A model generated the notes under the pieces. That model was not told the DNA's origin, did not search any database, and saw only the letters and a program-made list of their open reading frames with translations. DNA of 64,000 nucleotides from a virus, in the IMG/VR virus record IMGVR_UViG_3300026488_000025, positions 15,664 to 79,663 of that record; one strand, 5' to 3'. Below, piece by piece: positions 6,746 through 62,527 of the stretch; position 1 is the first letter of the stretch; each line of letters starts with the position of its first letter. A program made the position numbers and the translations under genes.

Positions 6746-7118
6746 TCGGTACTCCTAGTATTGCACTAATTTTTTCTTTGAGGACTTGTGGTGTAAACGG
6801 CTTGACAATGTAGTTATTCACGCCTGCTCGCAAAGCTTCGAGAACGCTCATTTTCCCACCCTCTGTCGTAACCATTACAATAGGTATCTCTTTATTCACT
6901 ACACGAACTTTTTTAACGAATTCTAGTCCATTCATTACGGGCATATTCCAATCTGTGATAATAATATCGAAAGGTTTATCGAATGAAGCTAGTGTATAAG
7001 CTTCAAATGCTTCTTCTCCATTGATTGCTTTCGTGACATCTTTGTACTCTAACCTAGCTAGTGTATTGGCAATAATCCTCAGCATCGTTGTGCTATCATC
7101 TACAATTAGTATTTTCAT
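6738..7118 (-). CDS. cheY: CheY chemotaxis response regulator (probable start 7118)
   Basis: MKILIVDDS, ITDWNMP, VTTEGGK, AGVNNYIVKPFTPQVLKEK, very like Helicobacter/Campylobacter CheY. Confidence 0.9.
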   Translation of the reverse strand: MKILIVDDSTTMLRIIANTLARLEYKDVTKAINGEEAFEAYTLASFDKPFDIIITDWNMPVMNGLEFVKKVRVVNKEIPIVMVTTEGGKMSVLEALRAGVNNYIVKPFTPQVLKEKISAILGVPNE

Positions 7119-7142: not shown

Positions 7143-7643
7143 ATGGCATTCAAGAAAAAAACTCTCAAACAAGGTTATTTTACTCCAAAATTCCCAGACA
7201 AATATATTATTACAGAAAAGAGCATCACGAAAGGGAATGGTATTAGGTATATGAGTGGATGGGAAAGAATGTTTTTTGATTTCTGTGACCTGAACCCTAA
7301 TGTACTATCTTGGAATTCTGAAGGTATTCAAATTCCTTATATCTCACCATTAGATAATAGACAGCATACATATTATCCTGATGTGTATCTTGAGGTTAGA
7401 AGAGCTGATGGTTCAGTAGAGAAATCTTTAGTGGAAATTAAACCTAATGCTGAGCGTATGCCCCCTAAGGAACCTAAGAAGAAAACAGAAAAGAGTAAAG
7501 CTAGGTATATGAAACAATGTCAAACATTTTTAGTGAATCAGGCGAAATGGGAACAGGCGGAAAGGTTTTGTAATGATAATGGTATTACTTGGAAGATTAT
7601 GGATGAATACTCTTTGGGTATAAAAAAACAACCAAAGAAATGA
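7143..7643 (+). CDS. gp4: Head completion nuclease
   Basis: P..PDKY, Y.SGWE..F..FCD.NP, WNSE, YYPD, VEIKP, VNQAKW. Confidence 0.9.
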   Translation: MAFKKKTLKQGYFTPKFPDKYIITEKSITKGNGIRYMSGWERMFFDFCDLNPNVLSWNSEGIQIPYISPLDNRQHTYYPDVYLEVRRADGSVEKSLVEIKPNAERMPPKEPKKKTEKSKARYMKQCQTFLVNQAKWEQAERFCNDNGITWKIMDEYSLGIKKQPKK

Positions 7644-7804
7644 AATTCAAATTAGAAGATACATCATACGAATCAATATTAGAAGTAAGAAAAGCACTAC
7701 AAGATTACAAATATACAGTAACACTTGATAACATTTATACAGTCGAAGGTGAATCAAAAGGTATTATAAGCAATCTTCAATTCGTGATAATAACAGTCTT
7801 ATAA
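7640..7804 (+). CDS. Small hypothetical protein (54 aa; not in ORF track)
   Basis: ATGA overlap with gp4 stop; open to TAA 7804. Confidence 0.45.
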   Translation: MKFKLEDTSYESILEVRKALQDYKYTVTLDNIYTVEGESKGIISNLQFVIITVL

Positions 7805-7890
7805 ATACATTTAATAAGAGGAATCTTGTTTGAACTAACTCTTCGCGGTCTTTAGTTCAAACAAGATTCAGGCCGCGAACCACTCTTATA
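7800..7890 (+). promoter_or_regulatory. Late promoter plus structured endonuclease leader, copy 1
   Basis: TATAAATA 7800; 18-bp inverted repeat 7821-7838/7852-7869; loop complementary to 7870-7879; TAAGAG/CTCTTA frame. Confidence 0.8.
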
Positions 7891-7912
7891 ATTTACTTAT
7901 AGGAGTTCTCTA

Positions 7913-8683
7913 ATGAACCTTACAGAAATATTACACGAATTCAAATCACATAACCTTAACATAATCGATGAATCTAAACTTATAGAGTATATAGACTTTT
8001 GCATATCTCACAATCAAAATAACAAAATAATGTACAAAACAGCACACCATCACATTCTACCACAAGCAGTAAAACTACCATTTGGTAACTTCAGCGACCT
8101 CAAATCAAATCCTTGGAACGGCGTGCATTTACTACACAAAGACCATTATGACGCACACTTTCTACTTTGTCAATCAATAGAGCATTATAGCATAGTGAGT
8201 TCATTTTATGCTATGAATAATAAAGATTTAAAGAATAAGAGATTAGATAAAAATGATATGGTTTCTGAAGATGTTACGGAATTGTTATTAAGAGATAGAA
8301 CTAAACTAGTAACAGCAGAATATCTATTAAACGGTGAATATACTTCTATAGCTAAAGAAGTGGGTAAGAAAGCATCTATAACGAAAAGAAAAGGATTTAT
8401 AAAAGATGGGAACCTGACTACGATAGCTAAAGAAAGCGGAAAGAAAAGAACAGCTACAAATAATGGTAGAGCTATTACAGTTGTTATTTACAATATTAAT
8501 AATGAAGTTATTGAAGAGTGTAACGGTACTTTCTTTGCTTTTTGTAAAATACATTCATTGGATTATACATCGTTAAAGAACGCGTCTAAAGATAGTAGAT
8601 TATTCAAGACAAATCTAAGTAAAGCAAGAGCTATAAACCAAGGAAAAGAAAAGTTTATAGGTTGTTATACAGAAACTAAATAG
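7913..8683 (+). CDS. Free-standing HNH-type homing endonuclease
   Basis: AHHHILP...N..HL..KDHYDAHFLL, a MobB/MobE-like HNH motif. Confidence 0.75.
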   Translation: MNLTEILHEFKSHNLNIIDESKLIEYIDFCISHNQNNKIMYKTAHHHILPQAVKLPFGNFSDLKSNPWNGVHLLHKDHYDAHFLLCQSIEHYSIVSSFYAMNNKDLKNKRLDKNDMVSEDVTELLLRDRTKLVTAEYLLNGEYTSIAKEVGKKASITKRKGFIKDGNLTTIAKESGKKRTATNNGRAITVVIYNINNEVIEECNGTFFAFCKIHSLDYTSLKNASKDSRLFKTNLSKARAINQGKEKFIGCYTETK

Positions 8684-13206: not shown

Positions 13207-13423
13207 CTATATTTCCTTCAGTTCTTTTGTTGTTCTATCAAATGAGAAATGTTTATTCTCTGTGTGGATGTGGACTTCTTTTTTTTCGATTTTATAATTT
13301 ACGGGTCTTAATTCTGTTTCAAATCTGAAATATGATAGAATTATTTGTAGTTCATTCTCTGACATAATCTTTCCTTTGTCTCTTTATATGTAATATTATA
13401 ACATAAAGAACCTTAGAGGTTCC

Positions 13424-15483: not shown

Positions 15484-15535
15484 TTCTTATCCTTCTTTTT
15501 GTTTATATGTAGTATTATAACATAAACTACCTTAA

Positions 15536-17092: not shown

Positions 17093-17157
17093 CTTTCTTT
17101 CCTTCTCTCTTTATATGTAATATTATAACATAATGAACCTTAAGGTGTACTGAACCG

Positions 17158-24267: not shown

Positions 24268-24561
24268 TTAAATTTGTAGTCTTTGACTTATTATTGTTCT
24301 TCTATCATTTTCGGGAATGTTATGCATATTAATTGTATCAGGTGTATCATTTTCATCACAATATCGAGTCGCGCTAGATAGAGTGTTAAATATACGATGT
24401 CCTGGGACTTCTTTACCCATTTTGGTGTCTTCAAAACAAACAGAAAGAAATTTAATACCATCATCATAGATGTACATTTCTGAAACTGTTTTACAGTCTT
24501 CTGAAGCTATCCAGTATTTTTTGTTTTTAATACCAATCATCTTAATCCTCCCACTCATCAC
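24268..24561 (-). CDS. Hypothetical protein
   Basis: ORF. Confidence 0.45.
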   Translation of the reverse strand: MMSGRIKMIGIKNKKYWIASEDCKTVSEMYIYDDGIKFLSVCFEDTKMGKEVPGHRIFNTLSSATRYCDENDTPDTINMHNIPENDRRTIISQRLQI

Positions 24562-24889
24562 ATTGTTGCATTACATAATCCATTTCTGCTTTTGAACGCA
24601 TATAAGATGTAAGATAGCCGTCAATGTTAGATGCTCCTACTGGATTTGCTGAGTGAATATTCCAAGTAAATGTATCAGGAATAAATTCACCTGACATATC
24701 TAAGTCCATTTCAATTAGCCATTTAACAATAACCATCGAAGTGTCATCACCACCTAAATCGTGGTCCCAACTTATAAAATCAGGACAACCGAAACGAGTT
24801 AAGTACTCAATAGTTTCTTCGCTTGAACGAGTAATTTTGTCAAAAGTTCCTTTAGGATTTCTAATATCATCTACATATAACTTTCTCAT
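24542..24889 (-). CDS. Cyclic-phosphate-processing receiver-domain protein
   Basis: LYVDDIRNP, ISWDHDLG, IHSANPVG motifs. Confidence 0.75.
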   Translation of the reverse strand: MRKLYVDDIRNPKGTFDKITRSSEETIEYLTRFGCPDFISWDHDLGGDDTSMVIVKWLIEMDLDMSGEFIPDTFTWNIHSANPVGASNIDGYLTSYMRSKAEMDYVMQQCDEWED

Positions 24890-24949
24890 CTTTCTCTCCT
24901 TTTAATCTTTATATGTAATATTATAACATAACTTAACTTAAAAACTCCT

Positions 24950-25051
24950 TATAAATAAGAGTATAAGAGATACTACATATACTTTCTAACTCTTAGTCGG
25001 GTTCTTAGAAAGTATATGTAGTGTGAACCCGACTAACCTCACACTCTTATA
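24950..25051 (+). promoter_or_regulatory. Late promoter plus structured endonuclease leader, copy 2
   Basis: TATAAATA 24950; 20-bp inverted repeat 24970-24989/25005-25024; 24993-25004 complementary to 25025-25036. Confidence 0.8.
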
Positions 25052-25073
25052 ATAAAAATATAGGAGTCTTCAA

Positions 25074-25709
25074 ATGACTACACAACAAGAAAATCAAGTA
25101 ACACTATACATAGCAACTCATAACAAAACAGGTCTTAAGTATTTCGGTAAAACAACAGTTTATTTTACTGAAGAACTACTCCAAGAAAAATATCACGGAA
25201 GTGGTAAATATTGGGTTAGGCATCTTAAAAAACACGGTGATGATGTGACTATGGAAATCTATGGTATATATGCATTGGATGAAGTAAAAGAAGTTGCATT
25301 AAAGTTTTCTGAAGAAAACAATATAGTAAAATCTCATAAATGGTCAAACCTTAAGTTAGAAAATGGTTTAGATGGAGGTTCAACTATATGGTCAGAGAAG
25401 TCAAAAATCAAAAATAGTATTAGTCACCTCGGAGTCAAAAATAGTATGTACGGAAAGACTCATTCTTTAGAAACGAAGCTTCTTTTAGGTAAACAGTCCT
25501 CACTAAGAACTCAAGGTTCTGATAATCCAAATGCTAAAAAGTGGAAAGTAACTAATCCAAACGGTATAATATTTATTGTTGAAGGAGGTATTATCGATTT
25601 TTCCAAAAAACATAATTTACCTACTACTACTTTAGCAACAATGGCTAAAGAAAATAGAATAATGAAATCCGGTAAATTAGTGGGTTGGAAGTGTGAATTT
25701 CTTACTTAA
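25074..25709 (+). CDS. GIY-YIG-like homing endonuclease with NUMOD3 motif
   Basis: LYIATHNKTGLKYFGKT, YHGSG.YW, N...ENG.DGG, NSMYGKTHSLETK. Confidence 0.75.
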   Translation: MTTQQENQVTLYIATHNKTGLKYFGKTTVYFTEELLQEKYHGSGKYWVRHLKKHGDDVTMEIYGIYALDEVKEVALKFSEENNIVKSHKWSNLKLENGLDGGSTIWSEKSKIKNSISHLGVKNSMYGKTHSLETKLLLGKQSSLRTQGSDNPNAKKWKVTNPNGIIFIVEGGIIDFSKKHNLPTTTLATMAKENRIMKSGKLVGWKCEFLT

Positions 25710-25879: not shown

Positions 25880-26596
25880 ATGGAGACAATTATGATATTA
25901 GGACCTAGTGTAACGCACAAATTATCTTTAATAAGATTTACTAAACTTGAAGAAGAATGCTTAGAAATACACGGCGACCAATTTAACTATGATTCTTTCG
26001 TATTTACTAATATGAGATTACCGTCCACTATAATATGTAATATATGCAAAACATCATTCGATACATCTATGGACGCTCACATAAACAAAAAGTCTGGATG
26101 CAAAAAGTGCAAATCAACTAAACCTCAGCTAACACTCGATACGATTAAAAAGAGAGTCAAAAAATGTCACGGCGACAAATACACTATACTTAGTAGCGTG
26201 TTTACCGGCATAACAAACAAACTACTAATCAGATGCAACACTTGTAAATCAGAATATCTTCAAGTAGCCGATAGCATAACTAGAGGTATTGGTTGTGCAT
26301 CTTGCAATAAGACTGGTTTTAATGACAATAAACCTGCTACGCTATACTATATAAGTGTAGCTAATACTGCATTTAAAATAGGTATAACTAATAGGACAAT
26401 AAAGGAACGATTTGGTAAAGATTTTAGTAAAATACGAGTTATAGCAACAAAACATTTCGATAAAGGTGTAGATGCTCGTTTAGCAGAACGAGAAATCATA
26501 CTAAAATATAGAGAATGTCGCTATTTAGGCGAAAATCTACTAATGAACGGTAATACAGAATTATTTTATATGGATGTACTACAAGGTAAGCTTTAG
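25880..26596 (+). CDS. Zinc-ribbon (DUF723-like repeat) putative homing endonuclease
   Basis: Repeated HGD.Y...IIC..C...H....GC..C, then LYY..KIGITNR..ER..G.TE. Confidence 0.65.
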   Translation: METIMILGPSVTHKLSLIRFTKLEEECLEIHGDQFNYDSFVFTNMRLPSTIICNICKTSFDTSMDAHINKKSGCKKCKSTKPQLTLDTIKKRVKKCHGDKYTILSSVFTGITNKLLIRCNTCKSEYLQVADSITRGIGCASCNKTGFNDNKPATLYYISVANTAFKIGITNRTIKERFGKDFSKIRVIATKHFDKGVDARLAEREIILKYRECRYLGENLLMNGNTELFYMDVLQGKL

Positions 26597-36947: not shown

Positions 36948-37703
36948 CTACTTATGTTTACACTTATCGAAATGCCATTGTTTCATTCCATTAATCTTTC
37001 CAGACTTATTGCAGTGAGGACAAGTAACTGTCTCTCTATTCTTAGCACTATCACTCATTTGTTTCTTAGTACAATCAGAGTGTTCTTTATCTAAGAATGG
37101 TTTAGAAGATATTATAACTCCATCAGCATATAGTTTTTTCATAAGTTTGGATTGTTTCTCTTTTCTTTCCTCTGAATGTTTCTTGCCTAGACAAGGATGA
37201 ATCTCTCTATTCTTAGCACTATCACTCATTTGTTTCTTAGTACAATCAGAGTGTATCTGATTGTACATAGGATTACCAACACCTGCTTTTACTTTTCTCA
37301 TCTTATTTTTTGTTTCTTCTGAATGAGATAGATTAAGATTATATGTTTCATAATGTTTTGAATTATACTTTCCTGACCCATTCATTCTTCTAATTGCTTT
37401 ACTCATCTTTCGTTCACCATAAGTATAAGAGATAGATTTGTAGTGTTTCCAAATAAGTATATGACATATAAAGTGCTCTCTAGCGGTAAGAAGAATGCTA
37501 TTCCATTTATTAGACCTTAGGTCACCATATTCAGGAAACATAGATTCGGGTAGAATATGGTGATTCTCAAAGTATATATACTCATCTTCAGATTTTTTAA
37601 GTTTCTTACGATTCTCATTTTGGGCATTGTTTATTATGCTAAGGTATAATTTGCCATATTTGGTTTCTTGTTTAAGGTGTGATTGTATTTCTGTAAGTGT
37701 CAT
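36948..37703 (-). CDS. HNH homing endonuclease with NUMOD3 repeats
   Basis: ENHHILPES.FP, LTAREHFICH, duplicated HSDCTKKQMSDSAKNRE, CPHC. Confidence 0.82.
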   Translation of the reverse strand: MTLTEIQSHLKQETKYGKLYLSIINNAQNENRKKLKKSEDEYIYFENHHILPESMFPEYGDLRSNKWNSILLTAREHFICHILIWKHYKSISYTYGERKMSKAIRRMNGSGKYNSKHYETYNLNLSHSEETKNKMRKVKAGVGNPMYNQIHSDCTKKQMSDSAKNREIHPCLGKKHSEERKEKQSKLMKKLYADGVIISSKPFLDKEHSDCTKKQMSDSAKNRETVTCPHCNKSGKINGMKQWHFDKCKHK

Positions 37704-37723
37704 AGAAGACTCCTATAATAAAT

Positions 37724-37816
37724 TATAAGAGTTGATTTCCAGGTCTGTTACTTATTATGATATAGACCTGGAAGAGTATATCATAATAAGTAACACTCTT
37801 ATTATCTGTATTTATA
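37724..37816 (-). promoter_or_regulatory. Late promoter plus structured endonuclease leader, copy 3
   Basis: TATAAATA at 37816-37809; 19-bp inverted repeat 37746-37764/37777-37795; loop complementary to 37737-37745. Confidence 0.8.
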
Positions 37817-38007
37817 TAGTACTATTCTTTGACTCACTCAATAACTCTTCTAAATCAGATAGAGCAAATTCGTATCCCTCTAATAAACCTTGAAGATAAG
37901 CATCATTATATTCATTATTACTTTTACTTATACCTTCATTGGTTACGCTTACCATAATTCTATAAGAATCAATCAATTTTTCAAGTTTCTCGTTCATACT
38001 TTTCCTT

Positions 38008-38721
38008 TTACCAGATTTCCCAAAGTACTGATTTGCTAAGAGCGTGAGTCTTAACCTCAGCATCCCAATCTCTAGCATCACACCACTTTCTGATATTCTG
38101 TCTGTCCATTGAAGAAGCATACTTTTGGGCATATTTTCTTCTTTTGCCGTCATTATAAAGAGTCATTCTTTTCCAATCAGGAAGAGGTTTACCATAGAGA
38201 TATGTAGTACCTTCTCCGTGGTTATTAACAGAAACCTTGTTGTTTCTTGTTTTCTCTTTAGTCCAATCTAAGCGAAGTTCACCAGTCATTCTTACTTTCT
38301 CAACGAAAAAATCTTTGTAAGTAGCACTCACTAATCTGAAAATATCTCTCTTATCAGTGGTACACCATTTTCCGTTATTGAAGAAAGCTTCAAAAGTAAT
38401 AGTATTCTCAACATCGCTTAAGAATGTTTTGTAGTGGACTCTTACTTTGAAAGTCTTCACATATTCAGGATAACTCCCGTTTGTGTAACCATAAAAAGAA
38501 CCACTGTAAGTGTGTTCTGTAATAGTACTATTTGTAAGAATTTCAGGTTTGTTTCTGCATCTGTGATTTCTAGGAATATCTTCTGTTTCATCGAAGTTTC
38601 TTAGTATAGCACGACCTTTGTCTCTTATTGTGTTGTTTCTTGATGTTTTTCTGCGTCTGTTTCCTTTACGGTCCCAGCCACTAACATTTTCTTTCCATAA
38701 TCCGTTCATTGTGAACCTCAT
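38008..38721 (-). CDS. Basic hypothetical protein (probable start 38709)
   Basis: 237-aa ORF; GAGG SD before MNGLWK. Confidence 0.6.
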   Translation of the reverse strand: MRFTMNGLWKENVSGWDRKGNRRRKTSRNNTIRDKGRAILRNFDETEDIPRNHRCRNKPEILTNSTITEHTYSGSFYGYTNGSYPEYVKTFKVRVHYKTFLSDVENTITFEAFFNNGKWCTTDKRDIFRLVSATYKDFFVEKVRMTGELRLDWTKEKTRNNKVSVNNHGEGTTYLYGKPLPDWKRMTLYNDGKRRKYAQKYASSMDRQNIRKWCDARDWDAEVKTHALSKSVLWEIW

Positions 38722-51868: not shown

Positions 51869-51945
51869 TGGTACCCCCATCTGGACTCGAACCAGAAGTA
51901 TCATCCTTAGAAGGGATGTGCATTATCCAATTATGCTATGGAGGC
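51869..51945 (-). tRNA. tRNA-Arg(UCU)
   Basis: Cloverleaf; anticodon loop CTTCTAA; CCA. Confidence 0.9.
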
Positions 51946-51954
51946 AAATAAGTT

Positions 51955-52062
51955 AGAGATAAAAACGAAAAAGATGTAATTGGTCACCAGACTTCAATAG
52001 CCCGAATCGAACGGGCACTTCGTTTTCCAAATAAGCGATGTAATCTTTTTCTATAATTCTCT
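51955..52062 (-). ncRNA. Y-RNA-like ncRNA copy D with tRNA-like D and T arms
   Basis: AGAGA-ATTATA-GAAAAAGA-TTACATC ... TCTTTTTC-GTTTTTA-TCTCT; internal GCCCG-TTCGATT-CGGGC T-arm. Confidence 0.7.
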
Positions 52063-52098
52063 TAATTAATACTACTTTAATAATATCAATTAAAAGAA

Positions 52099-52174
52099 TG
52101 GTGCCGGTTAGAAGATTTGAACTCCTGGCCTATTGTTTACAAGACAATTGCTCTACCATCTGAGCTAAACCGGC
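52099..52174 (-). tRNA. tRNA-Thr(UGU)
   Basis: Loop CTTGTAA; CCA. Confidence 0.9.
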
Positions 52175-52231
52175 ATATTGAAATGGGCTTAATGAGTAAG
52201 ATATAGTTCTCTCTGCCATAATAGTGCTCAG

Positions 52232-52306
52232 AAGCGGGGGTTGGATTCGAACCAACGACCTCAAGGTTATGAGCCTTACGAGCTACCGGACTGCTACTAC
52301 CCCGCA
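52232..52306 (-). tRNA. tRNA-Met(CAU), initiator-like, no encoded CCA
   Basis: Loop CTCATAA; 1-72 mismatch; GCGGGG acceptor. Confidence 0.8.
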
Positions 52307-52334
52307 TCTCAACACTATATATGTTATTTATAAA

Positions 52335-52410
52335 TGGTTGCGGGAGAAGGATTTGAACCTACATCGTTTCGGCTTATGAGACCGATGAGTTACCAGTACT
52401 CTATCCCGCA
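52335..52410 (-). tRNA. tRNA-Met(CAU), initiator-like
   Basis: Loop CTCATAA; CCCGCAACCA 3' end. Confidence 0.85.
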
Positions 52411-53115
52411 ATATTTTTTGAATTTCTCAGTTTTCTCGACTGGTCAGCGTTACTTAAAGATACTGACTTACCCTACGATTGTTTATGATATAATTCTAAC
52501 CTTTAACAGTACAAAGCGTTAAGTTTCAGATATCCGAAGACCTTGTTCATAACGCTTTGTACTATTAAAAATACAAAAAAGTAATCTGTTATTGATTAAC
52601 CACGATACCTTATTCTTAATACTTCCTTAACGAATCGGAGATAAGGGTAACAAGTTTTTTACTCAAGGTTCAATAACTGTATTATCATTGCGACTCTTCA
52701 TCGACTAAATATTTCTACACTTCTCGTTTGTGCTTCAAATACATTGATTACTTTTTATGTCTTTCTTCTTTTGTAGTAACATTATAACATAGTGTTACTT
52801 AATTTTTGTTTAATAAATTGTGCTACATAAAGGTTTCGACCCTTTCAAATTCTCATAGAAATGTAACATATTGTTTACAATCAAATTTACTGGCACATTG
52901 TCAAGAGGTGTAAATAGATTATATTTTCAAGGACTGTCTAATCCTCTGCTCTATTGTATCAAATGTACGAGGAGAGTATCCACTTATAACCGTGACAAAG
53001 GCTACTAACAAAATACCTAGATACAGATATTCTTTTAGTAACTTTCTCTTTATATGTAGTATTATAACATACAAAGACTTAAAATATACTGAATTACTAA
53101 AAGAAGAGAAAAGAA

Positions 53116-55245
53116 TTACAGTAAATCGTTCCTCTCTTCTACCATCAGTACAAGCGACTCAAATAATTCTTCAGAACTTTTTTCCATCTTTTGTAGCGTT
53201 TCTTCTATACCAGGGTTGAATTTGTCTTTCATTCGCAAATTTATTGCCTCTTGTGCCTTCTCGTGGACATTTTGGTGGAACTTATTGATACCAGAAAAAT
53301 ATCTTGATTTACCGTACATTGTCTTACCTTCACCCAAGAACCATTTACCAAATCGGCAATCCGTGTGTTTGGACATAGTTTTATTTTCTGCTCCAAGGAT
53401 GGCATCATAAGCGTTTATTTTAAATATAAGATGCTCTATTTTTGTTAGAGAAACGATAATATCCTCAGAAATAACATTATTTCTTGCTGTATTATTGTTA
53501 TTCAGATTGCTTAGAACACTGATACGGTCATTAAGGTCTTCTGATACCGATGAAGCCTCACCAATAGATTTCATCATATTTTCTGTGCTTTCGTTCATTT
53601 CCGATGTATTTTGTTTAACCACATTAATACTAGCTTCTACATTTTTTGTAGCAGTCTGTGTTCTTTCTGCTAGTTTTCTTACCTCATCAGCAACAACAGC
53701 AAATCCTCTACCGTGTTCCCCTGCTCTTGCTGCTTCAATCGCTGCATTAAGTGCTAGTAAATTCGTTTGTTCTGAAATATCTTTAATAAGCTCAATAACG
53801 CTTGATATTTCATTTACTGATTCCTCTAGCTGCTGTGCAGATTCGGCTGTTCCTGTCATACCCTCTGATAATACCTGCAATGTATCTACCATCGTGTCTT
53901 TTGACGCAGTTAAAGAAGTAAAATCGTGTACTGCCTCTGTATTAAAATCATTTATTGTAGAAAGCTTAACCGTACTTTTTGAGAGAGCTTCTTTAATATC
54001 AGAAAGGTTATTAGTAGCTCCACCTGCCATTAAAGAATTTATACTAAGATTTAGTTCATTATCTTTTTGACCTAGTGCTAAATCTTTAGCTCTTTCTCTG
54101 ATTTCTTCATCTGATTTTGTTCTTTGTGTATCGGCTTCATTTAATGATGAGAATAAATTATTTATGCTTTGTTCTATTTCAGAAACCTCATCGGTACCAG
54201 TAACTACAATACTATTATTAAAATTATTAGAATCCTCTAAAATATTTTTCATACCCTCTATTCTAGTGATAAGGTTATTAGCAAATTTGAAACCTAGAAA
54301 AGACATCACTAGAGCAAATATTAGAGCTATTCCCATTTTTGTGAGCATCATCGTTAATAAATGTGATTTTTCTATGGCTGCATCTTTTTGGAGCACTTCA
54401 CCTAGAGTGATTTCTAATTCTCTAAGAGCATCAATCTTTCTCGTTATCGTCCTAAACCATTCACCTGGATTTGAGTCTAATGCAGTACCAGGCCCTCTTG
54501 CTAACAACATATTTCTCGTTCTCTCTACCTTGATATACTCTGGTGATATTTTGATGGAATCGAGAAGCTTTGTAGTCTCTGGTGTAGCTAGAGAACCGAA
54601 TTCTTTCAGGAATTTATTCTGCTCTGACACTAATACCACAAATTTTGAGAATGACTCTGTGCTGAATTGATTTTTTGTTAATGAACCCGTTACAACAGCT
54701 CTTTCTTTTCCTGCTAGTTCTTTTGAAGAGCTTAGATAACCTATCACGCTCATCTTTTTAATCGTTTCTGTATCTTTAGCTATGAATTTCGATAAGTTGA
54801 TAGCATCCAAATAAGTCCTATTCATAGTGCTAAAATATTGGACAACATCTTTCACTTCAATACTAAGGTTGTCTATACTGTTTCTTTTGTATGATATGTT
54901 ACTGTAAGACTGTAATGCTTTAGAGAATATCATCTTGCTGTCTTTATTAGGGAAATCAATATCTTTTACATCGTTGTAAGAAGAATCTACTTTGCTCCTA
55001 ATGTCTCGTATCTCTGACCTAAAATTTTTACCTTTTGAGCCTACGAAACCTGCAGAAGCACCTCTTTCTTGTTGTAGAAAATGTACGAGTTTGTTGATTT
55101 TGTTGTTTTCTGTGATTGTTTTTTCTAGTGTGGATATTGCTGTATAATCTCTGTATTCAGAAAATGTAAGGTAACTAAAACCTAATATAACAATAATTAC
55201 TGGTAGGACGGTGAGGGTTCTAAGTTTTGATGATATGTTTTTCAT
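53116..55245 (-). CDS. Methyl-accepting chemotaxis protein with NIT-like sensor and CZB domain
   Basis: Two TMs; LVH.LQQERG.S and KE.AGKERA (NIT); [37 protein letters not shown]; [15 protein letters not shown] (CZB). Confidence 0.92.
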
Positions 55246-55289
55246 ATTATGCTCTTTCTATTGATTTAACAATATTTATAGAGGCCTTA

Positions 55290-57006
55290 TCTTCATAAGG
55301 GCTTTTTTGAAACATCAGCAATTAAATCTGAATTAAGTTGTTTCTCACTTGGTTTTAGTTTTACTTCCTACTGACTGTTAAAGTAAGAATTTTTCATAAA
55401 ATAATCTATATAAGGTAATGTACACTTCCCTAAGTAAATTAATCTGCATTTTTTCAGCTTAACTAATTCAAAAATTTTACTTCTACGATGCCTCGAAAGA
55501 ACATCCTAAGATGCACTTGTGAAAACATTATAGAGAGTTTACGGACTTTTACCGCAGAAGATTGAACTTAATCAAAATCGTTACCTCGTGCAGACTCTAA
55601 CACACGATATGTTTTCTTATTGTTTTTAGTTGCAACATATTACAACAATAGCGTCCGACTCCACGCATCTTCGGACAAAGTTCTCTATTTTACGACTTAC
55701 CTTTTGTAGAGATAAAAGAGATTAATAAATTTCCAGTCATCGAATCTGGCACCCGTTGAATATACTAAATGCTACAAACATCGAGTAAATAATCAGGTTC
55801 GCCCACGCATTATAAACTTTTATAGATGTTGCCTACTCGGTGAGGATTATCACTACCTCTAGGTTGAATATCTCCAACTAGGTTCCGTTGTTTATTTTTA
55901 GGTCAAATCGTAAAAACCTTTGTTCTTTTTGACATTACATCGTTATCTATATCGGAACTAGACCCGAATCCCTCATCATTACAATGAGTACACTAAGTAT
56001 TTTGTGCTATATAGGTATTTAACATTTTCGATTAAATTAAAGGATTTGCACCTTTCTGTTCAGCCGCTTTTACCACAATTTCCCAGAAGGAATTGAACCC
56101 TCATAGCCACTTACTTGTTACTAAAAAATTTAATCTTCTATTTTTAGGTCTGGTTTCAAGATTCCTCTACACCCAATTACTACACCAATCTAAGGCGTAA
56201 CCCTCAACCCTATCAAGGTCGTTTCACATTATTTCGTTAATAGACACTTGCCAGCGATGCCGATTGTGAAGTCCTAGCCGTGAGGCGAGACAACCCAAGA
56301 CACTATCACTGGATGCCGTTATTAACTCAATAAAACTCTAACCATCCAGACTCCGATAGTTCCGCTACAATAACGGCCGTGGATTCGAACCTTAATAGAG
56401 TTTTATTGAATTAACATTGAATAACTATTATCTGTTCCACTTTATTCAAAAAGTTCAGCTGTGTTTCATCAGGTATTCTCAATTTTTTCAATTCGCAAAA
56501 CCAACTTCTATTTCCTTGTACTTCGGAATTTCTGTTGTTGTTTGATTAAAATATAAACAGTTCTTGAACATCATTTATACTTTCGACTTCTTTGAACTCG
56601 GATACTTCCTCTCTGTTCCTAAACCAAACGAGATTCGAACTCGTAACCTTCTCCGACCGTAGTGGGAAACGCTTTAACCATTTTAGCTTTTGGTGCTTTG
56701 TCTATTAATCAATTCTTACTGTGTATTTTGAGGTAATTAATCTCTAAATACTTTATAAAGATATAATAAATTTGGTAGTTTACATCTAGTCGAAATCCTC
56801 TTTCAAGGTACGAACAAGACAAAATTTATATCTTTATAAAGTACTCTATTAACTCAATAAAACCAACTTCCCAATTTCACTTTAGGAGCCATAACTAAGA
56901 TAGATGATGGTAAGTCATATCCCAAAGTTATGCTTTCTAGGCTACTTTATCGACAGCTATTTGAATCACCACGATTCCCTAGTACTGTTTGGTTTTATTG
57001 AATTAA
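55290..57006 (-). ncRNA. ORF-free island of multiple structured RNA modules, including tRNA-like elements
   Basis: No ORF of 60 aa or more; long bracketing stems; several T-loop hairpins; three tandem early promoters upstream. Confidence 0.55.
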
Positions 57007-57011
57007 CTCTC

Positions 57012-57262
57012 TTTATATGTAATATTATAACATAACCTTACTTAAAGTAAGATTAAATTCGATAAGAAACGCTCACATCTTGAACTTAATCAGATTCACT
57101 CATTTTGAGTAAATGACTCGGACTTACTTTCTTCTCTTATAGTACAATTATAACATAAAGTTACTTAAAAGTAACTGAAGTTTTTGATAAATCATAGAAC
57201 TTATAAAGAGAAAGTCTATATCCTCTTTATATGTAATATTATAACATAAGTAACCTTAGAGG
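57012..57262 (-). promoter_or_regulatory. Three tandem early promoters
   Basis: TATGTTATAAT motifs at about 57022-57035, 57146-57157 and 57237-57248. Confidence 0.7.
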
Positions 57263-57287
57263 CTACTTAACTTAGTAGCTTGTGGTA

Positions 57288-57860
57288 CTATATATTATAG
57301 TGCTCTTTAATTTCTTCAATGCTTTTTATATGCCTATCACCACGGTACTTTATATTACCAGTTTGCTGGATTCCCTCGTTAATGAGTTCTAAACCTTCAT
57401 CTAAATCGATGAATGAAACTATGTTATCATAATCACTAAGAGGAACTAAAGATTTTTTTATTTTGTGTATTAGCCCTTTGGTCCTTGTAGCGTCATAAAC
57501 TCTAGGTAAAACTATTACTGAATTATCATAACACAAAACTAACTCGCTTACCTTTAGTTTATACTTACTGTATTGTGTGCTATCACTATATACAGCCTCA
57601 GAAGAAGCATATACAAACTTTGCATCTATGTCCACACTTAAATACAGCATAGTTTTTGATAGCTCTAAGATGTCATTGTATAAATCCTCTGAATCTTCAG
57701 GTTCTGTTGGGGAGGCTAAATGTAGTATTATATCTATGTCTTTTCTGTGCCTATATAAAGAATAAGGTTTTTTAATCTTTTCAAACTCATATTTATTGCT
57801 ATATTTAGTAATAAAATTCTTACCAAGAAAACCAGTCCAACCAGTTATAAGAATCTTCAT
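57288..57860 (-). CDS. NAD-dependent epimerase/dehydratase
   Basis: ILITGWTGFLG, HLA, YASSEAVY, YSKYK. Confidence 0.8.
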   Translation of the reverse strand: MKILITGWTGFLGKNFITKYSNKYEFEKIKKPYSLYRHRKDIDIILHLASPTEPEDSEDLYNDILELSKTMLYLSVDIDAKFVYASSEAVYSDSTQYSKYKLKVSELVLCYDNSVIVLPRVYDATRTKGLIHKIKKSLVPLSDYDNIVSFIDLDEGLELINEGIQQTGNIKYRGDRHIKSIEEIKEHYNI

Positions 57861-58315
57861 CTATCTTTACCTAATTGTATATACCATATACCAATAGTAG
57901 CAAATTTTTCAATATTACGGAGAATAAAAACAAAATCACTCATATCTCGGGGAGCTATGAAAGCAATCTCCATCATCTCCATTATTTGTTTGTCATCATC
58001 TAATAGGTGGCCTATACCTAATTTCTCATAACCATATTTACCAGCATTACAGATAATAATCTTTCCTTGTTTGGCACCAAAATGTTTACAAGAAAATTTT
58101 AGTTGCTCTAATCTGTGTATGATAAAACCTGCAACACCATAGATATATACAGTATTCCCTTCAGAGGCTAGGCCTCCTGCTACATTCAGTAAATTGCTTT
58201 CACCTAAACCACAGTTTATTACTTTAGCTTTACTAGGAAAATTTTGTTCATTCCACATATCTGCGTGTAAAAGGTAATCAGTTTCTTTTAACTGTTTACT
58301 TAATTGTAATCTCAT
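57857..58315 (-). CDS. Transketolase-like protein, pyrimidine-binding subunit
   Basis: NCGLGESN...AGGLASEG, F..R.EQLK, GH...DD. Confidence 0.75.
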   Translation of the reverse strand: MRLQLSKQLKETDYLLHADMWNEQNFPSKAKVINCGLGESNLLNVAGGLASEGNTVYIYGVAGFIIHRLEQLKFSCKHFGAKQGKIIICNAGKYGYEKLGIGHLLDDDKQIMEMMEIAFIAPRDMSDFVFILRNIEKFATIGIWYIQLGKDR

Positions 58316-58973
58316 TGATATCCTTTAATTCTTTGTAGTGCCATTTGACTGAATCTTCTTCCATTTCTTTGACGCCTTGACCTTTGGTAGTTTTGAATAA
58401 TAATGCTGTTGGTGTGTATCGTTCTAGTATTTCTTGGATAAGATATTCGCTCATTTCATCATCTATAATCAGCACATCCCAACCATTACTAGATAGAATA
58501 TCAGCTATAGTGTTAATATTTTGGCTCAATATGGAATTTGTATTACCAGTTAATTGCATATCATTACAATCAACACACAATAACACATCTTTCTGGTGGT
58601 GCCCTATGAATTGAACGGCTTCCAATGTAGGTCCCATCTGAAAGGCACCATCACTAAGATTCACAAAAGTTTTCTTGTCATTAAACATCAGTCCACCAGC
58701 TACACCTAAAGCATTACCCAATGTTTCTTCACTAAAATTAACAAAATCTATCTCTTCGTGCTTAACACCATAGGATAAAGGTTGCTGTACTAATCCCATT
58801 TCTTCCCAAATAACATAATATGCTTGAGAACCAAAAGGTTTACCAATGCTGATATTCGTATTCTTGTAGTCTAATTCAGGTAAAATATTTTTGAGGTATG
58901 AATATTGTGATAAGGCACTAGGGATATGTCTTAGATTATTTTGGATGCTGTACTCTAACAATTTCTTAATCAT
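58296..58973 (-). CDS. Transketolase-like protein, N-terminal ThDP-binding subunit
   Basis: HIPSALS, LGNALGVA.G, LSDG..Q.G..EA, D.N..Q, TTKG.GV..ME...WH. Confidence 0.75.
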   Translation of the reverse strand: MIKKLLEYSIQNNLRHIPSALSQYSYLKNILPELDYKNTNISIGKPFGSQAYYVIWEEMGLVQQPLSYGVKHEEIDFVNFSEETLGNALGVAGGLMFNDKKTFVNLSDGAFQMGPTLEAVQFIGHHQKDVLLCVDCNDMQLTGNTNSILSQNINTIADILSSNGWDVLIIDDEMSEYLIQEILERYTPTALLFKTTKGQGVKEMEEDSVKWHYKELKDINEITIK

Positions 58974-59053
58974 CTATTTCCTTTACGAGTATTATATCAT
59001 AAAAGTACTTAATAGGTGCTGTTGTACATTATGTCCTATTCCAATATACTTTG

Positions 59054-59126
59054 TCTAACTGGCAGGTAACGCTCCTGCTATCCCTTAGGCCCAAGCTAAG
59101 TGGGATGACTTTTTCCCTACAGCTAG
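59054..59126 (-). tRNA. tRNA-Pro(UGG), atypical T-loop, no CCA
   Basis: Loop CTTGGGC; T-arm GCAGG-AGCGTTA-CCTGC. Confidence 0.65.
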
Positions 59127-59147
59127 ACAAAATATACTATTTCTAAA

Positions 59148-59224
59148 TGGTGCTGATAGTAGGGTTCGAACCTACAGTCTCTTGATTACAAAACAAGGGC
59201 CTTATCCAGTTTAGCTATATCAGC
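59148..59224 (-). tRNA. tRNA-Thr(UGU)
   Basis: Loop TTTGTAA; CCA. Confidence 0.85.
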
Positions 59225-59234
59225 ATTTATATTT

Positions 59235-59308
59235 TGGTGGAGATAGAGGGAATCGAACCCTCGTTACTACATTGCAAGTGTAGTGTAATCCCGTTATACT
59301 ATATCCCC
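59235..59308 (-). tRNA. tRNA-Ala(UGC)
   Basis: Loop CTTGCAA; G3-U70; CCA. Confidence 0.88.
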
Positions 59309-59310
59309 AA

Positions 59311-59386
59311 TGGCGCCCACGGTTGGTTACGCTCCAACTCCTCTAGTTTTTCAGACTAGCGATTCTACTAAGTTATCTTCGTAGGC
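59311..59386 (-). tRNA. tRNA-Phe(GAA), atypical T-loop
   Basis: Loop CTGAAAA; T-loop AGCGTAA; CCA. Confidence 0.78.
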
Positions 59387-59396
59387 ATTTATATTT

Positions 59397-59470
59397 TGGT
59401 ACTCATACTAGGATTCGAACCTAGATTATCCGATTATCGGTCGAATGTTCTACCATTGAACTATACGAGC
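59397..59470 (-). tRNA. tRNA-Ile(GAU)
   Basis: Loop CCGATAA (C33); CCA. Confidence 0.8.
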
Positions 59471-59474
59471 ATAT

Positions 59475-59548
59475 TGGTTCGGATATGGAGAATCGAACTC
59501 CAACTGCTACTTCCCAAAAGTAGTGTGATACCATTTCACTATATCCAA
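59475..59548 (-). tRNA. tRNA-Pro(UGG)
   Basis: Loop TTTGGGA; CCA. Confidence 0.85.
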
Positions 59549-59551
59549 TTA

Positions 59552-59625
59552 TGGTGGAGACACGGAGAGTCGAACTCCGAACTCAACATTGCAAGTGTTG
59601 TGTAATCCCATTTTACTATGTCCCC
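59552..59625 (-). tRNA. tRNA-Ala(UGC)
   Basis: Loop CTTGCAA; CCA. Confidence 0.88.
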
Positions 59626-59629
59626 AATT

Positions 59630-59704
59630 TGGTTGTTCTTAGAAGATTTGAACTTCTGACCTATCCCTTATCAAGGGAGTGCTCTACCACTGAGCTAAAG
59701 AACA
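59630..59704 (-). tRNA. tRNA-Ile(GAU)
   Basis: Loop TTGATAA; CCA. Confidence 0.85.
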
Positions 59705-59709
59705 TTATT

Positions 59710-59784
59710 TGGTACTCGATAGGGGAGTTGAACCCCTCTCTCTGACTTGAAAAGACAGCGACCTTACCGATAGTCGAATCGAGC
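59710..59784 (-). tRNA. tRNA-Glu(UUC)
   Basis: Loop TTTTCAA; CCA. Confidence 0.82.
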
Positions 59785-59886
59785 ATATATTTTAACAATT
59801 TGAAGATAATTTTATGAAAGATAGAAATCTGAAGTTTCAAGTCTTTCAAGAAATTACTTCTCAAAAGACCTGTTTGAAGAGGTTCT

Positions 59887-59997
59887 TTAAGAAATAGTTT
59901 CCGTTTCGGGAATAAAGGCAATTTCTGCCGGTGTAAAGGCAATAATAGATTCAATAGTAATAGTTGTTTCAATAGTTTCGATTGTAATTGTTCTCAT
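59887..59997 (-). CDS. Ile/Thr-rich leader-like peptide 1 (36 aa)
   Basis: AAGGA SD; MRTITIETIETTITIESIIAFTPAEIAFIPETETIS. Confidence 0.55.
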   Translation of the reverse strand: MRTITIETIETTITIESIIAFTPAEIAFIPETETIS

Positions 59998-60058
59998 ATT
60001 ATTTCCTTTTTTGTTTTTTAATTTTATTTAATTATTTTATAGTCTTATATGACATTTA

Positions 60059-60133
60059 TGGTGGACCCACTAGGTATCGAACCTAGTTCTCTGTGTTAAA
60101 AGCACAGTACTTCACCATTAAAGTTTTAGGTCC
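60059..60133 (-). tRNA. tRNA-Lys(UUU)
   Basis: Loop CTTTTAA; CCA. Confidence 0.85.
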
Positions 60134-60137
60134 TTAA

Positions 60138-60213
60138 TGGTGTATCTGGAAGGAATCGAACCTTCGACCGGTAGGTTAAAAGCCCACTACTCTGACCGCT
60201 GAGTTACAGATAC
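60138..60213 (-). tRNA. tRNA-Lys(UUU)
   Basis: Loop CTTTTAA; CCA. Confidence 0.88.
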
Positions 60214-60342
60214 ATCTAAAAATAAGTTATTCGTTTATTTAAAGATGCATTCTAGGTTTATAACTATCTACCTAAACAACATCTATGATTTTTGCTATCT
60301 TCATAGTGTTTCCTTTTATTTTATTTGAGTTAGAATACTCTG

Positions 60343-60414
60343 CTCCGGGAGTCAGAATCGAACTGACCTTTGTATGATTAACAGTCACGCGCATCGCCTT
60401 GATGCTGTCCCGGA
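60343..60414 (-). tRNA. tRNA-Asn(GUU), no encoded CCA
   Basis: Loop CTGTTAA; TCCGGGA acceptor. Confidence 0.75.
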
Positions 60415-60435
60415 GCACAATATTCTAAAATTATA

Positions 60436-60509
60436 TGGATGAGATACCAGGGCTCGAACCTGGGATAATCGAGTCAAAGTCGATTGTAATGCCACTTTAC
60501 TATATCTCA
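60436..60509 (-). tRNA. tRNA-Gln(UUG)
   Basis: Loop CTTTGAC; CCA. Confidence 0.85.
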
Positions 60510-60518
60510 ACATTTTTA

Positions 60519-60602
60519 TGGTGTAGACTGGTGGACTCGAACCACTCCCCTAAAGACAAGATTTACAGTCTTGCTGCCGTATCCGAACGACTTTCAATCT
60601 AC
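60519..60602 (-). tRNA. tRNA-Tyr(GUA)
   Basis: Loop CTGTAAA; variable arm; CCA. Confidence 0.82.
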
Positions 60603-60606
60603 ATTT

Positions 60607-60681
60607 TTACCAAATTGTCATTATCATTGGTAATACTTTTATTGCTAAACCTAACACTATTAATTCTACAATCAATCTCAT
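60607..60681 (-). CDS. Small hydrophobic peptide (24 aa) between tRNAs
   Basis: AAGGA SD; MRLIVELIVLGLAIKVLPMIMTIW. Confidence 0.4.
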   Translation of the reverse strand: MRLIVELIVLGLAIKVLPMIMTIW

Positions 60682-60696
60682 TAAATTCCTTTATTC

Positions 60697-60772
60697 TGGC
60701 GGTCTATATCGGTTCTGACCCGATTACCTTTCCCGTGACAAGGGAATGCTCTTCCAATTGAGCTAATAGACC
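60697..60772 (-). tRNA. tRNA-Asp(GUC)
   Basis: Loop TTGTCAC; T-loop GTCAGAA; CCA. Confidence 0.82.
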
Positions 60773-60775
60773 TTT

Positions 60776-60850
60776 TGGTGATTCCTAGGGGAATTGAACC
60801 CCTCTCTGCGAATTGAAAGTACGCTGACCTTACCGATAGTCGAAGGAACC
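60776..60850 (-). tRNA. tRNA-Glu(UUC)
   Basis: Loop CTTTCAA; CCA. Confidence 0.85.
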
Positions 60851-62343: not shown

Positions 62344-62527
62344 ATTCTCAAATGGGGTTATTATAGTGATATTATACTCCTTTAGAATATAACTTACCTT
62401 AAAGCAACCTTAAAGATTGTACTTTTGTCGTAAGATGTCACAAAGAGAATGAAATCAGATTCGAAAACCTTTGTCTTCCCCTTTATATGTAGTATTATAA
62501 CATACAAGGACTTAAAAACACCTTAGT

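Follow-up and report, generated by a model that had tools for sequence, protein, structure and literature searches.

A portable RNA leader cassette, possibly bistable, precedes homing endonuclease genes in uncultured T4-like phages

Three endonuclease genes in a 64,000-nucleotide window of a 79.7-kb phage contig are each preceded by the same compact cassette, which recurs in other uncultured phages and constitutes a real, widespread and uncatalogued family of RNA leaders. We interpret the element as a cis-acting, bistable translational leader that would limit endonuclease output from late transcripts, a reading to which we assign a probability of about 0.55. Among the roles entertained in an initial annotation of this DNA, a regulatory switch is the one that the evidence favours: the leader contains alternative helices, these covary across the family, the competing folds are nearly equal in energy, and the wobble pairs are biased towards one strand.

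Judged from its sequence, the phage is a deep-branching, uncultured T4-like myovirus; its portal protein is 43% identical to the portals of Vibrio phage phiKT1024 and of Campylobacter phages. The late promoter box TATAAATA, which occurs upstream of structural genes, is enriched in the window (31 observed against 14 expected), and 17 tRNA genes lie in two minus-strand clusters (51872-60850). A 12-nt motif, ATA(T/C)TACATATA, has 16 matches in the window against 1.45 expected, 14 of them on the minus strand (for example 13385-13396, 15504-15515, 17112-17123, 24910-24921, 53051-53062, 57014-57025 and 62484-62495). The sites that were placed fall in gaps separating minus-strand genes, and the motif is probably a piece of an early or middle promoter or of a transcript start region. 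Segment A of cassette copy 2, described below, agrees with this motif across 12 nt, perhaps by chance.

The initial annotation had proposed a shared architecture at three loci, and we observe it at 7800-7915 and 24950-25076 on the plus strand and at 37701-37816 on the minus strand. In 5′ to 3′ order, TATAAATA is followed after 5-7 nt by TAAGAG, segment A, CTC, segment B, A′, B′, a tail of 3-7 nt and CTCTTAT, after which come a short loop, TAGGAGT, 5-6 nt and the ATG of the endonuclease. Segment A measures 18, 20 and 19 nt and segment B 10, 12 and 9 nt in copies 1, 2 and 3, respectively; A′ abuts B and B′ abuts A′ without linkers. As had also been recognised, A and B are unrelated between copies yet self-complementary within each, A:A′ and B:B′ being perfect or containing one G·U pair.

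In copy 1 (plus strand), the T4-type late promoter box TATAAATA occupies 7800-7807 and is followed by AATAAGAG (7813-7820), which complements CTCTTAT and is where the late transcript is predicted to begin; it would provide the 5′ strand of a helix, P0, and thus serve as an anti-anti-SD. Segment A (7821-7838, 18 nt) is the 5′ arm of a long AT-rich helix. The conserved CTC together with segment B (7839-7851, with B at 7842-7851) forms the loop of hairpin A and also supplies the 5′ arm of helix B, which is GC-rich, while A′ (7852-7869) is both the 3′ arm of helix A and exactly the loop of the B hairpin. B′ (7870-7879) has one G·U with B and is joined by a 3-nt tail (7870-7882 in all) to the anti-SD strand CTCTTATAA (7883-7891), whose partner is either 7813-7820 or 7897-7905, the latter being the SD arm TTATAGGAG of an RBS-occluding hairpin. 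Copy 2 (24950-25073, plus strand) comprises the promoter box (24950-24957), TATAAGAG (24962-24969), A (24970-24989), CTC (24990-24992), B (24993-25004), A′ (25005-25024), B′ (25025-25036), the tail (25037-25043), the anti-SD (25044-25051) and the SD arm (25059-25066). Copy 3 (37704-37816, minus strand) has the box at 37816-37809, AATAAGAG at 37803-37796, A at 37795-37777, CTC at 37776-37774, B at 37773-37765, A′ at 37764-37746, B′ at 37745-37737, the tail at 37736-37732, the anti-SD at 37731-37723 and the SD arm at 37718-37710.

The pattern CTCTTAT..TAGGAG occurs three times in the window against 0.11 expected and in none of 100 shuffles, and in the whole 79.7-kb contig it is found solely at the three cassette loci; a covariance-model search of the contig likewise returned the three window copies and no others. 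The leaders fold with z of about -5.7 to -6.1 relative to dinucleotide shuffles. At Rfam gathering thresholds the window yields tRNAs only, and the leader gives sub-threshold, long-hairpin look-alikes.

All three cassettes lead into nuclease genes. The gene behind copy 1 (7913-8683, plus strand) encodes an HNH homing endonuclease of 256 residues, that behind copy 2 (25074-25709, plus strand) an endonuclease of 211 residues with NUMOD3 and a GIY-YIG-type N-terminus, and that behind copy 3 (36948-37703, minus strand) a mobE-like HNH and NUMOD3 homing endonuclease of 251 residues. HNH motifs are present in the first and third, whose PHROG matches are phrog_12434 and phrog_655. The second matches phrog_314 and NUMOD3; a Pfam search did not call its catalytic domain, and the N-terminal GIY...YFG motif was read by eye. 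Searching PDB sequences with the nucleases gave no informative matches. A common gene upstream of copies 1 and 3 was considered and rejected, the two small preceding ORFs being unrelated, and a search of IMG/VR for endonuclease-free relatives that would mark insertion boundaries found no close relative of the flanking gene.

Both plus-strand endonuclease genes sit within small plus-strand islands of selfish-looking genes amid minus-strand phage genes (7118-7804 and 25847-26747). The island near copy 1 includes a TnsA-like endonuclease (7143-7643) and that near copy 2 a DUF4379 zinc-finger protein (25880-26596), and each has its own TATAAATA (at 7118 and 25847), some 17-25 nt before the ATG and without a structured leader. 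An ORF with a cREC_REC (cyclic-phosphate-processing receiver) domain (E = 5.5e-20; 24542-24889, minus strand) adjoins copy 2 divergently.

The initial annotation had called for a family search for association with endonuclease genes, and this search bears the association out: at least 50 copies are present in uncultured phage contigs, almost all before homing endonuclease genes. A strict promoter-TAAGAG-CTCTTAT pattern scan of IMG/VR gave 49 loci, and 43 non-redundant elements were parsed, all in gene orientation and with the identical order A, B, A′, B′. Their architecture scores range from 20.5 to 31, whereas none of 430 shuffles exceeds 13.5. Combinations of A and B are distinct in 39 of the 43, and the A segments fall into 33 clusters. 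A covariance model built from P0 and A:A′ (R1) found 50 sense-strand copies in 42 sources. The cassette is also present on two short MAG-binned contigs, one Campylobacterota and one Cloacimonadota. The Campylobacterota contig (L390, 1.7 kb) bears a bona fide copy, and this copy, taken with the resemblance of the portal to those of Campylobacter phages, may be a weak hint at the host group. Run against seven cultured T4-like phages (Vibrio phiKT1024, Pelagibacter HTVC008M, P-SSM2, S-CRM01, S-PM2, Syn9 and Aeh1), the covariance model found nothing; a BLAST match in Vibrio phages was rejected as a cassette, as it is merely a capsid late promoter.

Across the family, 33 full-length downstream ORFs belong mostly to homing endonuclease PHROGs (phrog_314 in 14, phrog_655 in 9 and phrog_12434 in 8, with phrog_19446, phrog_7168 and others besides), and Pfam matches among the downstream ORFs include NUMOD3, GIY-YIG, SegE and T5orf172. 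This spread over several nuclease families upholds the earlier suggestion that the module is portable and can stand ahead of both HNH and GIY-YIG classes. The gene context 5′ of the cassette varies as well, co-directional and opposite neighbours being about equal in number, and about a third of copies, window copies 1 and 2 included, are antiparallel to their neighbours. The cassette is thus a portable unit, usable in either orientation, before unrelated nuclease families.

Variants of the cassette were also seen. A longer sub-type (L072:7289-7413, L164:4383-4500, L135:692-813, L168:126-252 and L423:1477) has an extra bulge dividing helix A into two stacked parts, and several U·G pairs are added on the sense strand. 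The copy at L162:4783-4887 (minus strand) has apparently decayed: it retains the promoter, TAAGAG, A, B and A′ in full, but its B′ is cut short and it has no anti-SD.

Helices A and B are borne out by covariation. In the 50-copy alignment, every one of the 18 A:A′ pairs shows double-sided changes, and 96.1% of cells pair; A:A′ scores 0.668 for covariation, whereas shuffles give 0.157 (none of 500 reaches 0.668) and slid partners at most 0.11. For B:B′, a register-exact parse gives 97.9% pairing, compared with 25-45% for slid strands, and all four Watson-Crick types appear at most positions. Non-Watson-Crick cells in the two helices comprise 40 G·U and 8 A·C on the gene strand (binomial p = 3e-6), an asymmetry that points to selection on the mRNA strand, although strand-biased deamination could inflate the G·U excess; the counts for helix B alone, 8 and 3, do not settle its strand.

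The two helices share the interleaved order of an H-type RNA pseudoknot, that is, 5′ arm 1, 5′ arm 2, 3′ arm 1 and 3′ arm 2. The initial annotation had judged a pseudoknot to be sterically impossible, which holds for the full-length helices, made mutually exclusive by zero-length linkers, but goes too far for a partial pseudoknot, in which B:B′ with about 6-7 A:A′ pairs is possible. The linker from B to A′ is 0 nt in 43 of 43 members and that from A′ to B′ 0 nt in 24 and 1-2 nt in 19, with stem A ranging from 13 to 24 bp across the 43. Unlike in an H-type pseudoknot, where the stems form simultaneously and loops cross the grooves, the zero-length connecting loops and the first stem of 18-20 bp forbid the full knot by a geometric argument, as distinct from a three-dimensional model, and the helices are alternatives. 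Exchange between A and B has a computed barrier of 18-23 kcal/mol, so high as to be locked, and constrained folding of 43 leaders puts the cost of forcing B:B′ at 5.5 kcal/mol.

One member departs from this plan. At L160:3334-3445 (minus strand), the spacer between A and A′ is inverted and reads B′ then GAG instead of CTC then B; B′ therefore occurs twice and helix B cannot form. The downstream ORF of 240 codons is intact despite the inversion. This copy is evidence of DNA-level flipping or template switching at a quasi-palindrome, and template-switch correction, likewise at the DNA level, could be partly responsible for how perfect the arms are. Spacer orientation is conserved in 49 of 50 copies.

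The element had been held to differ from the simple SD-occluding hairpins of other homing endonuclease genes. It in fact contains one, formed by CTCTTATAA with TTATAGGAG in the short minimum-free-energy fold: since CTCTTATA(A) complements (T)TATAGGAG via one U·G, the cassette includes an SD-occluding hairpin, and what it adds to the plain form is a 5′-terminal competitor strand and the A/B module. CTCTTAT(A) is the anti-SD; in predicted folds its local pairing with (TA)TAGGAG occludes the RBS, and it is also the exact complement of (T)ATAAGAG. The pairing CUCUU:AAGAG is perfect and CUCUU:AGGAG uses one U·G, an arrangement that works solely as sense-strand RNA. By folding, the SD is buried in a stable local hairpin of 8-10 pairs. 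The shorter fold gives this hairpin in all three copies, and the minimum-free-energy fold of the full-length late transcript gives it in copies 1 and 3, with P0 and A:A′ in copy 2. Across the family the RBS hairpin takes two registers, over the SD, as in the window, or over the spacer from SD to AUG, and both use the TTATAA part of the anti-SD.

T4 late transcripts begin about six bases past the promoter box. In 41 of 43 members, 5-8 nt separate TATAAATA from TAAGAG, so the late mRNA is predicted to begin with (T)ATAAGAG; this start would lie at the outer edge of P0 and leave the 5′ terminus flush in a helix. Constrained folding of the 43 members places P0 with A:A′ 0.8 kcal/mol above the best fold containing A:A′. 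Once B:B′ has formed, P0 costs a further 2.7 kcal/mol in the 43 leaders, because stacking on A:A′ is lost. In the Boltzmann ensemble of the late transcript, the anti-SD is on the 5′ end with p = 0.36 and on the RBS with p = 0.56, values that become 0.02 and 0.86 when TAAGAG is deleted in silico. The exchange between P0 and the RBS hairpin has a computed barrier of 5.7-9.1 kcal/mol and should be fast. Pairing of the anti-SD with the 5′ end is similar in late and read-through transcripts (0.36 against 0.31 in the ensemble calculation), so nearest-neighbour models do not reproduce the classic late-only logic of I-TevI.

Because P0 hardly varies, the evidence for its covariation comes from three sequences. 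In L146:2610-2710 and L173, whose A and B are unrelated, the 5′ strand reads ACAAGAG and the anti-SD CTCTTGT, and the RBS-side arm matches the C, a change from T:A to C:G that is compensated in all three strands. In L127:5553, P0 contains a G·U, which is compatible on the sense strand only and is A·C on the opposite strand. Scans for further P0 variants found TAAGAA/TTCTTAT in coding sequence only and, among the matches listed, ACAAGAG/CTCTTGT only in L173 again.

We propose that the endonuclease mRNA begins with this element as its leader, within a self-contained cassette of late promoter, leader and RBS, which would travel with homing endonuclease genes of unrelated families. With the anti-SD CUCUUAUA on the RBS, a local hairpin would form and translation would be off; with it on UAUAAGAG at the 5′ end of the late transcript, helix P0 would form and the RBS would be free. 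A:A′, stacked on P0, would clamp the 5′ end to the anti-SD and favour the open state. B:B′, by contrast, would take A′ as its loop and leave A single-stranded, so that the clamp would be lost and the closed state favoured. Given two pairings for the anti-SD and the A/B alternatives, the RNA would therefore be a poised two-state device. Within this scheme, the point at which transcription starts, the consequence for translation and any trigger are inferred. Because A′ is made before B′ and the barrier is some 20 kcal/mol, helix A should win in sense RNA, and the model suggests that helix B should form there only rarely unless A is masked as A′ emerges. Helix B is conserved and covaries although it is disfavoured by the folding order of sense RNA; its role could be in antisense read-through RNA, where it folds first, or as a ribosome- or helicase-gated alternative.

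A more ambitious version of this scheme, which we put forward only tentatively, treats the A/B module as a kinetically locked RNA 'memory' that would set the fast toggle between SD, anti-SD and anti-anti-SD by allostery. The first helix to form would be held by a barrier of about 20 kcal/mol, placing the choice during synthesis, and it might be made by a ribosome occupying a start-stop mini-ORF, by a helicase or by which way the region is transcribed. If true, the module would define a class of cis-riboregulator not seen before, one that spreads horizontally with selfish nuclease genes as their plug-in. Two other forms of control were considered and set aside. In copy 1 and copy 3, a TAA within the TATAAATA box is the stop codon of an upstream ORF (7802-7804 for ORF 7640-7804; 37814-37812 for ORF 37812-38153); coupling to a terminating upstream ribosome was rejected, as such a stop was seen for these two window copies only and is not a general feature of the family. 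A transcription terminator or attenuator was rejected because a scan with loops of 3-8 nt found no terminator-like sites; B′ is followed by a U-poor tail of 3-7 nt and then by CUCUUAU, with no immediate U tract.

Other explanations account for parts of these data. An antisense RNA, made from a backward late promoter or by read-through from a neighbour, could fold on the opposite strand and pair with and silence the leader. The cassette is indeed globally quasi-palindromic, reading TATAAGAG ... CTCTTATA on either strand; B:B′ would form first in such an RNA, which would give helix B a purpose; and the third of copies that run antiparallel to their neighbours would suit it. The sequence TATAAATT is also found on the antisense strand within the RBS hairpin in 12 of 43 members, but it is a by-product of the extended RBS hairpin in those 12 and is missing from the window copies. 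We consider this explanation unlikely, as none of the 43 members has a consensus TATAAATA in antisense between -40 and +300 relative to the ATG, and the three window copies lack even a match at 7 of 8 positions. Further, the wobble pairs fit the sense strand (40 against 8), the U·G of the RBS hairpin and the G·U of L127 become A·C mismatches in antisense RNA, and the covariance model scores 56-99 bits in sense against 21-24 in antisense, a weak comparison in that the model includes the RBS. Of similarly low probability is a stability or processing element, in which P0 and A:A′, as a quasi-continuous duplex of 26-28 bp, would shield the late mRNA from decay that depends on its 5′ end, or would be cut by host RNase III in a way that determines what becomes of the message, with translation control secondary. 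The 5′ terminus predicted to lie flush in a helix would fit, as would the length of A:A′, which at 18-20 nearly perfect base pairs exceeds what juxtaposing the strands requires; the pairing of anti-SD with RBS, its triple covariation and helix B would be left unexplained. Such a function is compatible with a translational leader and does not exclude it.

The remaining explanations carry less weight still. The interleaved inverted repeats might be a DNA-level feature, for example a recombination hotspot formed by a hairpin or cruciform, or else a trace left by template switching, with no RNA function; the near-perfect arms, the fast turnover of their sequence and the spacer inversion in L160, itself a DNA event, are what such a feature would produce. 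We nevertheless find this improbable, and the cruciform for mobility raised in the initial annotation loses ground to the same wobble asymmetry of 40 G·U to 8 A·C, which favours selection on the mRNA strand. The position of the element is moreover fixed relative to promoter, RBS and ATG, its spacer orientation is kept, and repeats of 18-20 bp with a 13-nt spacer extrude cruciforms poorly. A ribosome-sensed attenuator, with TAAGAG as a weak SD for a tiny ORF in A, would supply helix B with its missing trigger: a ribosome there would block A, B:B′ would form and the endonuclease RBS would close. An ATG lies 5-12 nt after GAG in 26 of 43 members (about 16% expected, as estimated from composition), a count inflated by related A sequences (33 clusters), and opens ORFs mostly of 1-3 codons; in copy 3, an internal ATG at 37784-37782 opens one of 9 codons. 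Copy 2, however, has no start codon there and copy 1 only TTG, TAAGAG is a poor SD, and A:A′ should close in a fraction of a second, all of which makes this mechanism quite improbable. Least credible, and hardly to be entertained, is the idea that the RNA is a guide-like or other partner of the nuclease. A conserved scaffold that carries variable sequence has a superficial likeness to a guide, but both segments are fully paired in cis, and homing enzymes of the HNH and GIY-YIG classes use protein domains to recognise DNA. The target search that had been suggested (at most 3 mismatches for A and 1 for B) found no second A or B site for the three copies in the 79.7-kb contig besides short chance matches, and the sole recurrent match, a 12-mer of copy 2 A, belongs to the separate intergenic motif described above.

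As a bistable translational leader, the cassette may be set beside several known systems. In hok mRNA of hok/sok, the 5′ and 3′ ends fold back on each other, metastable hairpins and a translational activator element are present, 3′ trimming activates the message, and an antisense RNA controls it in trans. Like the cassette, it is the mRNA of a toxic protein in which access to the RBS depends on long-range pairing of the 5′ end and on exclusive helices that fold sequentially; unlike in hok, no such antisense partner or processing is evident in the cassette, and the sequences are unrelated. Bacterial leader attenuators use a three-strand logic of anti-antiterminator, antiterminator and terminator. 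There, as here, one strand has two possible partners and upstream structure biases the choice; in the cassette, however, the output would be RBS occlusion and not termination, and exclusion between A and B is geometric and does not come from shared nucleotides.

The closest relatives are the late-promoter and RBS-hairpin controls of I-TevI, I-TevII, I-TevIII, segB and Aeh1 mobE (PMC2988022). These share with the cassette a T4-type late promoter, an SD-burying hairpin, a homing endonuclease gene downstream and a presumed restraint of translation. In the T-even and Aeh1 systems, the late promoter lies in or beside the hairpin and late transcripts are without its 5′ arm (PMC2988022). In the cassette, by contrast, the promoter is 75-95 nt upstream, with TATAAATA 83-94 nt ahead of the anti-SD arm in the three window copies, so both hairpin arms lie inside the predicted late transcript, and relief would have to come from a third strand at the transcript 5′ end; a two-helix interleaved module of 60-75 nt, without counterpart in the T-even and Aeh1 systems, stands between that strand and the anti-SD. 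Among the 'fractured genes' of ocean metagenomes, Dassa et al. (2009) described 5′-UTR hairpins of free-standing endonuclease genes, with TATAAATA and two complementary stem-pairing motifs in DNA of uncultured T4-like phages, upstream of GIY-YIG and other endonuclease ORFs (PMC2677866). They are presented there as regulatory hairpins only, with no interleaved helix, three-strand competition or family-wide covariation reported in the text (PMC2677866). Those hairpins were probably the first sighting of this or a sister cassette. The best reading of the cassette is as an elaboration of the T-even endonuclease RBS hairpins.

The leaders form a structured RNA family with very strong covariation that is absent from Rfam. 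They would offer a clean natural case of helices that exclude each other by geometry, without shared bases, coupled to a three-strand RBS switch, and at about 100 nt they are short enough to be dissected directly by biochemistry and to be reused as a synthetic switch of translation. The system would gain in interest should the A/B lock turn out to be decided during transcription. Homing endonucleases need to be expressed sufficiently to spread yet remain harmless to the phage that carries them, and the promoter-in-hairpin trick of the T-even phages is, to our knowledge, the sole control of their expression to have been worked out. The cassette may represent a different and more elaborate solution to the same problem in a large group of uncultured T4-like phages.
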